Shown: piece by piece, positions 39,001-42,000 of the stretch | Position numbering within the stretch: the stretch's first letter is position 1 | Layout of the letters: each line of letters begins with the position of its first letter | Origin: a virus | Lineage: Duplodnaviria; Heunggongvirae; Uroviricota; Caudoviricetes | Direction: 5' to 3' (one strand) | IMG/VR virus record: IMGVR_UViG_2778261067_000008 | Coordinates: 1-42,756 of that record | DNA length: 42,756 nucleotides | Made by a program: the position numbers

Positions 39001-42000
39001 GAAAGACATATCAGGGATTTGGTTTTCCCCGTTGCCCACATTCCGTTTTGCCGCTTCTCCCAAACCAACCTTTCAAATATTTTTCTGAATCAGGTGATAT
39101 TTCGCCTCTTCTCCTGTTTTTACAACAGGAGAAGCACTCATGATTTACGGGTATGTTCGTGTATCAACAAATCATCAGGATACAGAGTTGCAACGTCTTG
39201 CACTTGAGTCAGCTGGCTGTGAGCGAATTTATGAAGAATATGCCAGTGGCAGAACAGCTAATCGCCCTGTGTTAAAGGAATTAATTTCGGTGATGAAAAG
39301 TGGAGATGAGTTGATTGTCTGGAAGCTAGATCGGATAGGGAGAAATGTGCTACATGCGCTATTGATGTTTCAAAATCTGCACGAAAAAGGCGTTAATTTT
39401 CGGAGTATTACAGATGGTGTAGACCTGAAAACAGCAAGTGGTCGCTATAATTTCCGTAATATTCTTTCTGCTGCGCAGTATGAATCTGATTTGAATAGCG
39501 AGCGAACTTTAGCTGGTTTGGCTATTGCCAGATCCAAAGGCCGGATTGGTGGGCGTAGACCGAAGTTTAGCGACGAGCAGTGGCAACAGATGGGAGCGCT
39601 CATAGCGGCAGGGAAATCACGGCGTTATGTTGCACGTATCTATAACGTTGGGCTATCAACCCTATATAAACGATTTCCTGTTACTGGCATTCAAACGAAA
39701 TAATTTAAAAGCAATTTAAAGAGTTATTTGTCTAATGTTGGAAGCCGCAGCCACGTCGTATGCAAGAACGTGCTGCGGCTGGCTGGCGAACTTTCGATAG
39801 TGCGAGTATTGAATGATTTCCAGCCGTTACCGATTTTACGTGTTAATTAGTGAACAAACCACTCGTCAGCAGATTCCCAGGTATCTTTCAGAGTCTCCTG
39901 AACAAAAGTTTTTGCAGAATCCTTATCTGCGGTGCGTGTAACAGAAAGGCCATCGTTGCTGGTGGCTTTTACGATCACCTCTACATCGTCATAACGTTTA
40001 CTGATGCGTCGGGTTAATTCTTCCTTTAACGCATCCACAGCACCGGTTGGCATTTTAGTCATTTTTTCTTTGGCTATGCAGATTTCAATACGCATAAAAG
40101 TCCCTCTATACTGTGTTTGTATACAGTGTTATTTTTAACTGTATGGATAAACAGTGTCAAGAGGTCTTATTTCTGCTCCTTTGGAGCTCTTCAAAACGAT
40201 TATGTAAAGATTTCGGATACAGTTCGGTATATACCTGCCATAGCACGTTTAATGAACGATGCCCTGTGACCTGGGCGACTTCCTCAATACTAAAACCAGC
40301 CTCAAATAAGCGACTTGCCCCTTCTCTACGCAAATCATGGTATCGCAGATCCTTAATACCTAATTTGCTTCTTACCCTCTGAAATCCCGCAGTAACAGAA
40401 GTGCTGTTATATGGAAAAATGAATTCCGATTTTTTGGGCTGTCGTTGGACGATATCCCAGGCTTCCCCAAGCAAGGCTACTTTCATGTGGTTGCCTTCCT
40501 TTTTGCGTGGATCTTTCCTGTCTCTTACGAGTATAGATTTTTGTTCCTGGTCGAGATCTTCCCATCGTAACCGGCATACTTCTCCGATCCGCATACAGGA
40601 CCACACAGAAAATTTGAGGATATCAACGAACGGAATTTTTGAGCATTTATGAGTAGATCGTTGTTGAAGGCCTTCAATGAGCATGTCCAGTTCATCAGAT
40701 GCTGGTCTACGATTACGACGGTTTGATTTACCAATCAAACCAAGTTTAAGTAGATATGGGCGAGCGCTTTTCGCCGGGTTTGATGTGTAATTAATTCCGT
40801 ATACAGGTTTGGCCGCATCCAGAACACTGCCAAGATAACTAACATCGTGGCTGACTGTTGCTGGACCTGCACCAGCGTTGTTTCTTAGCCTGCAATGTTC
40901 AATTACGTCATTTTCTGTCAGTTCAGATAGTTTGATCGCGGAGATGTCACTATCCATAAGCAGTTCCAGCACATATCTTTTAGTACGGCCTGCTTTACCT
41001 CCGGCATTTGGGTCATTTAAATATTTGTGTAGTAAGTCACGGACTGTAAGTCCGTCAACTGCATTTGATGATGGAATGCCATATAGATCTAATTCCATCA
41101 CTTTCTGTGTTCCCCATGTTTTGGCATGAGCATGTTTAGGGAATGTTTTGCTTTCCCTGTAAGTGATAACACCTTTTTCTTTGATAATCACATTACAGCG
41201 ATAGCGTGGTGTGCCATCGGATTTTAGTCGTTTCTCTATGTTATAGTACGCCATTACACGACCTCGTTATTTCGGGTTCCCATAAAACGTGGGAACCTGT
41301 GCGGGAACCTAACGCGAGAAAAATAGCCTGAAATGTTCAAAAATGCACGATAATCATGAAACACAAAAAATTAATCAAACCAGCGTGATGCCTGAAAAAA
41401 CTGGTGTTTGCTGGAATTCTCGGTTTAGCATTGCTCCTATGCTCGACTGGACGGACAGGCACTGCCGTTATTTCCTGCGTCTGCTTTCCCGCAATACGTT
41501 GCTGTATACAGAAATGGTGACCACAGGGGCGATTATTCACGGTAAAGGTGATTACCTGGCGTACAGTGAAGAAGAACATCCGGTAGCGTTGCAACTGGGC
41601 GGTAGCGATCCGGCGGCGCTGGCGCAGTGTGCGAAGCTGGCAGAAACGCGCGGATATGATGAGATCAACCTGAATGTCGGCTGCCCGTCTGACCGGGTAC
41701 AGAACGGCATGTTTGGTGCGTGCCTGATGGGCAATGCGCAGCTGGTTGCCGACTGCGTGAAAGCGATGCGCGATGTCGTATCGATTCCGGTGACGGTGAA
41801 AACGCGTATTGGCATCGATGACCAGGACAGCTATGAATTTCTCTGCGATTTCATCAACACCGTTTCCGGCAAAGGCGAGTGTGAGATGTTCATCATCCAC
41901 GCACGTAAAGCCTGGCTTTCTGGGTTAAGCCCGAAAGAAAACCGTGAAATCCCGCCGCTCGATTATCCGCGTGTGTATCAACTGAAGCGCGACTTTCCGC

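Follow-up and report, generated by a model that had tools for sequence, protein, structure and literature searches.

A dinI-like gene under two candidate LexA operators behaves as a mobile accessory cassette of Escherichia coli prophages

The virus record IMGVR_UViG_2778261067_000008 from IMG/VR (Caudoviricetes), a stretch of 42,756 nucleotides that covers positions 1 to 42,756 and is called the window here, contains a prophage, about 40 kb long, whose insertion site is the 5' end of dusA. Beside the integrase gene of this prophage lies a short dinI-like gene, and the promoter of that gene carries two boxes that resemble binding sites for LexA, the repressor of the SOS response that DNA damage sets off. 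The best explanation, to which we assign a probability of roughly 0.7 as a whole, is that the host element is a dusA-integrated lambdoid prophage of the Mu-tailed kind, and that the dinI-like gene with its promoter is a self-contained, SOS-inducible accessory unit. The features of this unit and of the gene upstream of it are as follows, with LexA boxes graded as matches out of 20.

39847-40095, minus strand: coding sequence of the DinI-like protein, 82 amino acids (Pfam PF06183, PDB 1GHH, phrog_189).
40102-40106, minus strand: Shine-Dalgarno sequence GAGGG, read from the sequence, 6 nucleotides before the ATG.
40109-40128, no strand assigned: proximal LexA box, 20-mer TACTGTGTTTGTATACAGTG as read on the plus strand, core CTGTGTTTGTATACAG at 40111-40126, over the predicted transcription start; 16/20.
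40131-40136, minus strand: -10 hexamer AAAAAT, from the promoter scan.
40137-40156, no strand assigned: distal LexA box, 20-mer AACTGTATGGATAAACAGTG as read on the plus strand, core CTGTATGGATAAACAG at 40139-40154, filling the spacer between the -35 and -10 hexamers; 15/20.
40155-40160, minus strand: -35 hexamer TTGACA, from the promoter scan, overlapping the integrase stop codon.
40157-40159, minus strand: stop codon TGA of the integrase gene.
40157-41254, minus strand: tyrosine integrase of the dusA type (Pfam Phage_integrase, 1.1e-20; RefSeq annotation of an identical locus), abutting dusA.

Genes on the minus strand follow the order integrase, 61-bp gap, 82-residue open reading frame, 66 nucleotides, strong hairpin, and then a convergent Gin-type invertase gene. 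A sequence-only reading of this stretch had placed a dinI-like gene next to the integrase, under two tandem CTGT-N8-ACAG boxes. The tyrosine integrase (Pfam Phage_integrase) does lie immediately upstream on the same strand, and both boxes are perfect and fall within the 61-bp gap from the integrase stop to the ATG at 40095. One detail needs amending: the boxes themselves are intergenic, but the -35 hexamer shares bases with the integrase stop codon, which places part of the regulatory region outside the gap.

In the orientation of the gene the elements run TTGACA, distal box, AAAAAT, 4 nucleotides, proximal box, GAGGG, ATG. The promoter scan rates this promoter (TTGACA, 18 nucleotides, AAAAAT) as near the sigma-70 consensus, with 10 of 12 matches, and the record of phage mEp460 carries an annotated promoter feature at the same spot. 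Both boxes overlap the core promoter, the distal one within the spacer and the proximal one beginning 5 nucleotides past the -10 hexamer, and by this placement either box alone would be expected to block RNA polymerase. The same scan finds no plus-strand promoter in the gap between the integrase and dinI-like genes, which gives no obvious sign that the boxes control a divergent transcript.

LexA boxes were scored by the number of matches to the gammaproteobacterial 20-mer consensus TACTGTATATATATACAGTA, with shuffled sequences and a positive control. Shuffled windows contain 0.19 sites per window at 15/20 or better and 0.01 at 16/20 or better. When 40.8 kb of E. coli RM9088, spanning chromosome and prophage, are scored in the same way, only three sites appear. 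Two are the boxes already named; the third, at 15/20, lies between uvrA and ssb, is taken to be the classical uvrA/ssb LexA operator, and thus serves as the positive control. By the simpler pattern, perfect CTGT-N8-ACAG occurs four times in the window against 0.47 expected from shuffles. The fourth of these, CTGTAAGTAACCACAG at 10647-10662 on the plus strand, is near the 5' end of an open reading frame for an Ash/Rha-domain regulator (10544-11707); it scores below 14/20 against the 20-mer consensus and may be there by chance.

The gene is dinI-like, as the sequence-only reading had it. The protein matches PF06183 at 70.9 bits against a cutoff of 24.2 (E 1.1e-19), covering profile positions 1-63 of 63, and at the sequence level its residues 1-81 align over the full length, positions 1-79, of the DinI structures PDB 1GHH/7YWA (E 3.7e-13). 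It also aligns to positions 71-149 of the 151-position profile of phrog_189 (E 5.7e-31), and neither Pfam nor phrog reveals an extra domain in its 82 residues. Identity to E. coli DinI is 49%, and the HMMER alignment to PDB 1GHH gives the same matches. A cryo-electron microscopy structure of RecA with DinI assigns contacts to a hydrophobic pocket of L13, L21, W71, W77 and F78 and to the acidic residues E24, E69 and D76 (PMC9926225). The corresponding residues here are M15, L23, W73, W79, F80, E26, D71 and E78, so that all eight positions are retained or conservatively replaced. By alignment the protein is a bona fide member of the DinI family with its RecA contacts intact, and it probably binds RecA.

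The two-box design recurs well beyond this prophage. Both strict boxes are present in 61 of 61 IMG/VR copies with intact upstream sequence; the IMG/VR scans, both for the DinI-like protein and for the cI alignment described below, return only copies that are 99-100% identical, and they serve for counting rather than for divergence. Diverged sequences of cI came instead from protein clusters and the contigs that encode them, and diverged DinI homologs from a scan of one genome per species, which yielded 80 DinI-family loci. Of these, 21 have at least 56% identity to the window protein and constitute the phage-type set, drawn from Escherichia/Shigella, Pantoea, Trabulsiella, Mixta, Erwinia, Rosenbergiella and a few assemblies with doubtful labels; the remaining 59, at 41-51%, were taken as the chromosomal dinI type. 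At least one box precedes every member of the phage-type set, and in 14 of the 21 there is a pair of CTG-N10-CAG boxes, one near -59 and the other near -32. Box interiors differ between genera among the two-box homologs, while the half-sites and the fusion of the -35 hexamer to the distal box are retained, TTGACA running directly into CTG(T/G) in 13 of 13. In homologs from other genera an equivalent of the -10 hexamer, TAAA(A/T)(A/T), stands between the two boxes. This recurrence in diverged homologs marks the two-operator promoter as a conserved trait of the phage-type clade and not an accident. Several of these loci are demonstrably in prophages: the Rosenbergiella copies lie 3' of an integrase gene whose product has a C-terminus resembling that of the window integrase, and tail-fibre genes run convergently to the Pantoea copy.

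Chromosomal dinI of E. coli and other Enterobacterales belongs to the same family and length class, has the same RecA contacts, and likewise has a LexA operator over its promoter. It differs in sequence (the 49% identity given above), in carrying one box at about -37 (found in 51 of 59 chromosomal-type loci) rather than the pair at about -59 and about -32 with the distal box fused to the -35 hexamer, and in its location, the window gene being on a mobile cassette. An experimental precedent comes from the dinI genes of the Salmonella prophages Gifsy-1, -2 and -3 (Lemire et al. 2011, PMC3121763; PMC8072944). These are also prophage-borne, with a LexA box that follows a terminator-like palindrome, and their products accumulate after mitomycin C, with 4.6- to 23-fold induction by nalidixic acid (PMC3121763, PMC8072944). 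The msgA gene is listed as a LexA-box gene as well (PMC8072944). Gifsy dinI has one box, is found downstream of replication genes, and heads an operon with an antirepressor gene (gfoA/gftA) and irsA; the window gene is solitary and located at the end of the prophage that bears the integrase gene and the attachment site (att), in a phage whose repressor is cleavable. Because of the anatomy of the boxes and promoter, their conservation in diverged homologs and the Gifsy precedent, LexA control of the dinI-like gene is strongly supported at the level of sequence and comparison, and we infer LexA binding and induction by DNA damage with a high degree of confidence.

Several observations weigh against the explanation of the unit as a LexA-controlled accessory module that acts on RecA. 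Seven of the 21 phage-type homologs have a single recognizable box. Spacing between the boxes varies from 24 to 29 bp across lineages and so does not imply cooperative binding of LexA; it would seem to be the promoter, and not phased cooperation, that dictates where each box lies. With no terminator in the gap, a transcript from the integrase gene, directly upstream on the same strand, or from the early-left region could read into the dinI-like gene in the excised or lytic state. A literature search for LexA-binding or expression data on this E. coli cassette found none. Finally, non-polar deletions of the dinI homologs of Gifsy-1 and Gifsy-3 did not significantly affect induction (PMC3121763), a result qualified by the reliance of Gifsy phages on antirepressors instead of cleavable repressors (PMC3121763).

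The unit behaves as a mobile accessory cassette. Promoter and gene together are found at 80% coverage or better in 1683 of 5426 complete E. coli genomes, EDL933 and UTI89 included, with up to seven copies each, so the cassette is an ordinary finding; the E. coli genome copies are always annotated as a DinI-like family protein. Phage records that carry it include SKA5, mEp460, the cdtI phage and many phages converting to Shiga toxin (Stx) 1 or 2. Copies in sequenced phages and E. coli genomes have 92-100% DNA identity, promoter and both boxes included, and only their neighbors vary. The cassette occupies the cargo zone, from the tail-fibre genes to the integrase gene or att, where it adjoins the integrase gene in the window and in mEp460, cdtABC in the cdtI phage, and nleC and att in an Stx2a phage. 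The dinI-like gene is absent from the same junction in HK97, HK633 and lambda. Among the features expected of a moron, a promoter of its own is clear. A 3' hairpin with covariation is present too, but the element to which it belongs is also found without dinI, and the window copy of the hairpin has a weak U-tract.

A consequence for the phage itself had been proposed in the sequence-only reading, namely that a phage-borne DinI could feed back on cleavage of an S24-type repressor. Such a repressor is indeed encoded in the window, and a further LexA box lies within its gene.

8953-9645, minus strand: CI-type repressor, with helix-turn-helix (HTH) and peptidase S24 domains (Pfam Peptidase_S24, 5.9e-19).
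9417-9436, within cI (8953-9645, minus strand): internal LexA box TACTGTTTTTACATACAGTA; 17/20, the best in the window.

In the family alignment Ala99-Gly100, Ser144 and Lys181 of the repressor are invariant. Together with the S24 domain, these residues identify it as the cleavable CI type, unlike the Gifsy repressors.

The proposed course of events begins in an undamaged lysogen, where host LexA would shut the dinI-like promoter through the operators in its spacer and at its start site. DNA damage would produce active RecA, LexA would cleave itself, and the 82-residue protein would be made and most likely bind the groove of the activated RecA filament. Bound there, it would stabilize the filament and block a site needed by slow substrates such as UmuD and CI-type repressors, and the expected result would be damped or delayed cleavage of the S24 repressor that the prophage itself encodes and, in trans, of the repressors of other prophages. 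DinI and lambda CI bind the same elements of the RecA groove, which provides a structural basis for the supposed competition with a CI-type repressor. Feedback on repressor cleavage, the step that more than LexA binding, damage induction or RecA binding we infer, is structurally plausible and is not a new idea: that phage DinI would limit induction of Stx phages is already in print (PMC8456039). We consider it doubtful, with the balance tilted against it, that the DinI-like protein affects prophage induction.

The cassette might instead, or also, be a case of lysogenic conversion for the benefit of the host, in which additional SOS-induced DinI would stabilize RecA filaments, restrain UmuD processing and SOS mutagenesis, and aid survival under genotoxic stress. 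Its position in the cargo zone between the tail-fibre genes and att or the integrase gene, with cdtABC adjacent in phage cdtI and nleC adjacent in the Stx2a phage, fits such a role, as do the presence of up to seven copies per genome and the absence of an induction effect in the Gifsy deletions. Salmonella MsgA, a DinI-like virulence factor, is another point in its favor. The host already carries its own LexA-controlled dinI, however, and we judge host benefit to be possible but rather unlikely. It is compatible with the accessory-unit explanation, and the two are not exclusive.

A different role for the LexA-controlled transcript would be to serve an antirepressor, as in the induction modules of Gifsy and coliphage 186, with DinI as a passenger. 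Tum of phage 186 and the split tum of Fels-2 and PSP3 are LexA-controlled and contain a DinI-like segment; the window protein, with 82 residues and no extra domain, is without the N-terminal antirepressor half. Only 66 nucleotides separate its stop codon from the hairpin, and the repressor is of the cleavable S24 type. A Gifsy-like antirepressor gene 3' of the dinI-like gene was sought and rejected, as the minus strand has no open reading frame of at least 30 amino acids in 39704-39846. With no antirepressor gene behind the dinI-like gene, neither the Gifsy nor the 186 model fits the window, and this account of the cassette can hardly be correct.

The region 3' of the dinI-like gene has features of its own.

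39743-39839, minus strand: conserved noncoding 3' element of about 100 nucleotides, consisting of about 60 nearly invariant nucleotides and the hairpin 39743-39780.

The element folds at -35.5 kcal/mol (z -3.7). Six pairs of the hairpin show compensatory changes, while the upstream stem within the 60 nucleotides shows no covariation and is almost invariant. The hairpin probably ends the dinI-like transcript, with a weak U-tract in the window copy. Without dinI, the element recurs in lambda (between ea31 and ea47, at 24160-24256), in HK97 (beside sib) and in HK633 (at the equivalent junction), and in these three, where its position was read, it lies where the early-left arm meets the tail-fibre genes. 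Further copies are present in phi80, in phage 21 and in Stx phages. The element is therefore not specific to the dinI-like gene. Rfam has no match to the conserved part of about 60 nucleotides. Below the Rfam threshold, the hairpin (39740-39777, plus strand) aligns with the last 37 positions of the Shigella small RNA CssrB (23.5 bits against a gathering cutoff of 76, E 0.013); this match, on the strand opposite dinI, suggests that the hairpin is a shared, bidirectional transcript end. Searching the literature by sequence string returned nothing for the conserved element.

These data bear on the idea that the functional product is RNA, with the conserved 3' untranslated region processed to a small regulatory RNA in the manner of DinR from the Klebsiella dinI mRNA (PMC10907235). 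A conserved, stably folding region does follow the stop codon, and the Klebsiella case offers both a precedent and a likeness, since there too LexA controls a dinI transcript whose 3' region is conserved (PMC10907235). The window region, however, is unrelated to the Klebsiella-specific seed. Pairing of a DinR-like small RNA with the E. coli ftsZ leader was tried and rejected, since it stays at background: -21.1 kcal/mol against a mean of -22.5 for shuffled sequences, with 301 of 500 shuffles as good. Given also the copies without dinI in lambda, HK97 and HK633, the lack of covariation in the upstream stem, and the lack of any Rfam family apart from the partial match confined to the terminator, an RNA product is very improbable.

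The LexA box inside cI falls where the gene encodes the variable linker that joins the HTH domain to the S24 domain. At the same codons a box of 16-19/20 is found in ten of ten diverse cI genes, namely those of the window, SfII, ST64B, a Klebsiella phage, Citrobacter phiNP, and prophages of Kosakonia, Lonsdalea, Buttiauxella, an Enterobacter-like genome and Citrobacter. The TACTGT and CAGT positions are 100% identical across the ten genes, compared with 62% in the 24 nucleotides upstream. At the protein level, T-V-[YCHF]-x-[NSYDHT]-S is the sole constant feature of 87 distinct and otherwise hypervariable linkers from 115 protein clusters. Residues allowed at the fifth position of this motif share codons ending in AC or CC, the pattern expected if the DNA motif, and not the peptide, is selected. 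Thin evidence hints at further signals around the box: a weak promoter can be read on the sense strand (TTTACC, 17 nucleotides, TACTGT), and an in-frame GTG follows a purine-rich tract about 50 nucleotides downstream of the box in nine of the ten genes. The box could act as a roadblock, or as part of an internal promoter for a product comprising only the S24 domain. A literature search for an intragenic LexA box in cI did not find one. The prophage small RNA svsR, which maps to the 3' end of cI in a different phage, was considered and found unrelated (PMC12803456).

A LexA-like protein is encoded in the window as well.

13884-14210, plus strand: LexA-like open reading frame of 108 amino acids, between dam and rusA, with start and stop codons overlapping the neighboring genes.

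It consists of a LexA DNA-binding domain and a short tail, without the protease domain, and cannot cleave itself. It matches Pfam LexA_DNA_bind (4.2e-19) and PDB 1LEA (6e-16) and aligns to residues 2-86 of E. coli LexA; the recognition-helix residues RS-NAA-EH are kept, and its LLAGEE, which aligns to LexA VAAGEP, keeps an Ala-Gly motif resembling the cleavage site of LexA. The protein belongs to phrog_362 and is annotated as LexA-like or orf42 in SfV, SfII, SfIV, mEp460, the cdtI phage and Stx2 phages. The sole characterized analog found is gp6 of phage GIL01 (PMC6182141).

This protein might bind the dinI-like boxes. It could even be the main or an additional user of both operators, in which case the phage would decide when the cassette is closed again during lytic growth. 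The strong domain match and the intact recognition helix speak for this, and so do the location of the gene in a nin-type early-right operon, the many carriers that also have the dinI cassette (mEp460, cdtI, SKA5, Stx2c phages, 2H10 and phiSTEC1575-Stx2k), and the example of GIL01, whose LexA homolog regulates phage promoters (PMC6182141). On the other hand, conservation of the two-box promoter was assessed irrespective of the LexA-like gene, and we consider the proposal improbable. A broader conjecture, to which we likewise give a small chance, is a LexA-gated phage circuit of three arms that would set the threshold at which activated RecA brings about repressor cleavage. Its first arm would be the dinI-like cassette. 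Its second would be a high-affinity operator in the cI linker, conserved throughout that repressor family, which could be either a roadblock or, through an internal promoter, the source of a product with the S24 domain alone. Its third would be the protein with only the LexA DNA-binding domain, made in lytic growth, which could close these operators, and SOS operators of the host, once host LexA is gone.

The remaining features of the locus concern the prophage as a whole.

1412-1427 and 41388-41403: direct repeat of 16 bp, ATGCCTGAAAAAACTG, that marks the ends of the prophage and has one of its copies within the 5' end of dusA.

The present 5' end of dusA appears to be supplied by the prophage. 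In E. coli RM9088, the annotation of an identical locus lists an HK97-type head module, a contractile-tail module, a recombinase, a DinI-like family protein, a tyrosine integrase, dusA and pspG. A PrtN-type excisionase-like gene (2569-2877) and the integrase gene occupy the two opposite prophage ends, an arrangement shared with mEp460. The region 36845-39703 resembles an invertible tail-fibre segment that sets host range, with tail-fibre and assembly genes on the plus strand and an alternative assembly gene and a promoterless fibre C-terminus on the minus strand. A Gin/Pin-type invertase gene at 39140-39703 closes the segment, and the fibre ends differ in the RM9088 copy.

Part of this picture was already known: LexA-controlled prophage homologs of dinI are documented, and annotations of this very cassette exist in thousands of genomes. 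If it is functional, the LexA operator within the repressor gene would be a new wiring of the lambdoid switch to the SOS response. For the cassette, the two-operator design suggests tighter repression than that of host dinI. About a third of E. coli genomes, EDL933 among them, and phages bearing stx, cdt or nleC, hold from one to seven copies of what is predicted to be an extra SOS-inducible protein that binds in the RecA groove. Such additional DinI-like copies could shift the dose of damage at which Shiga-toxin prophages and other prophages are induced.

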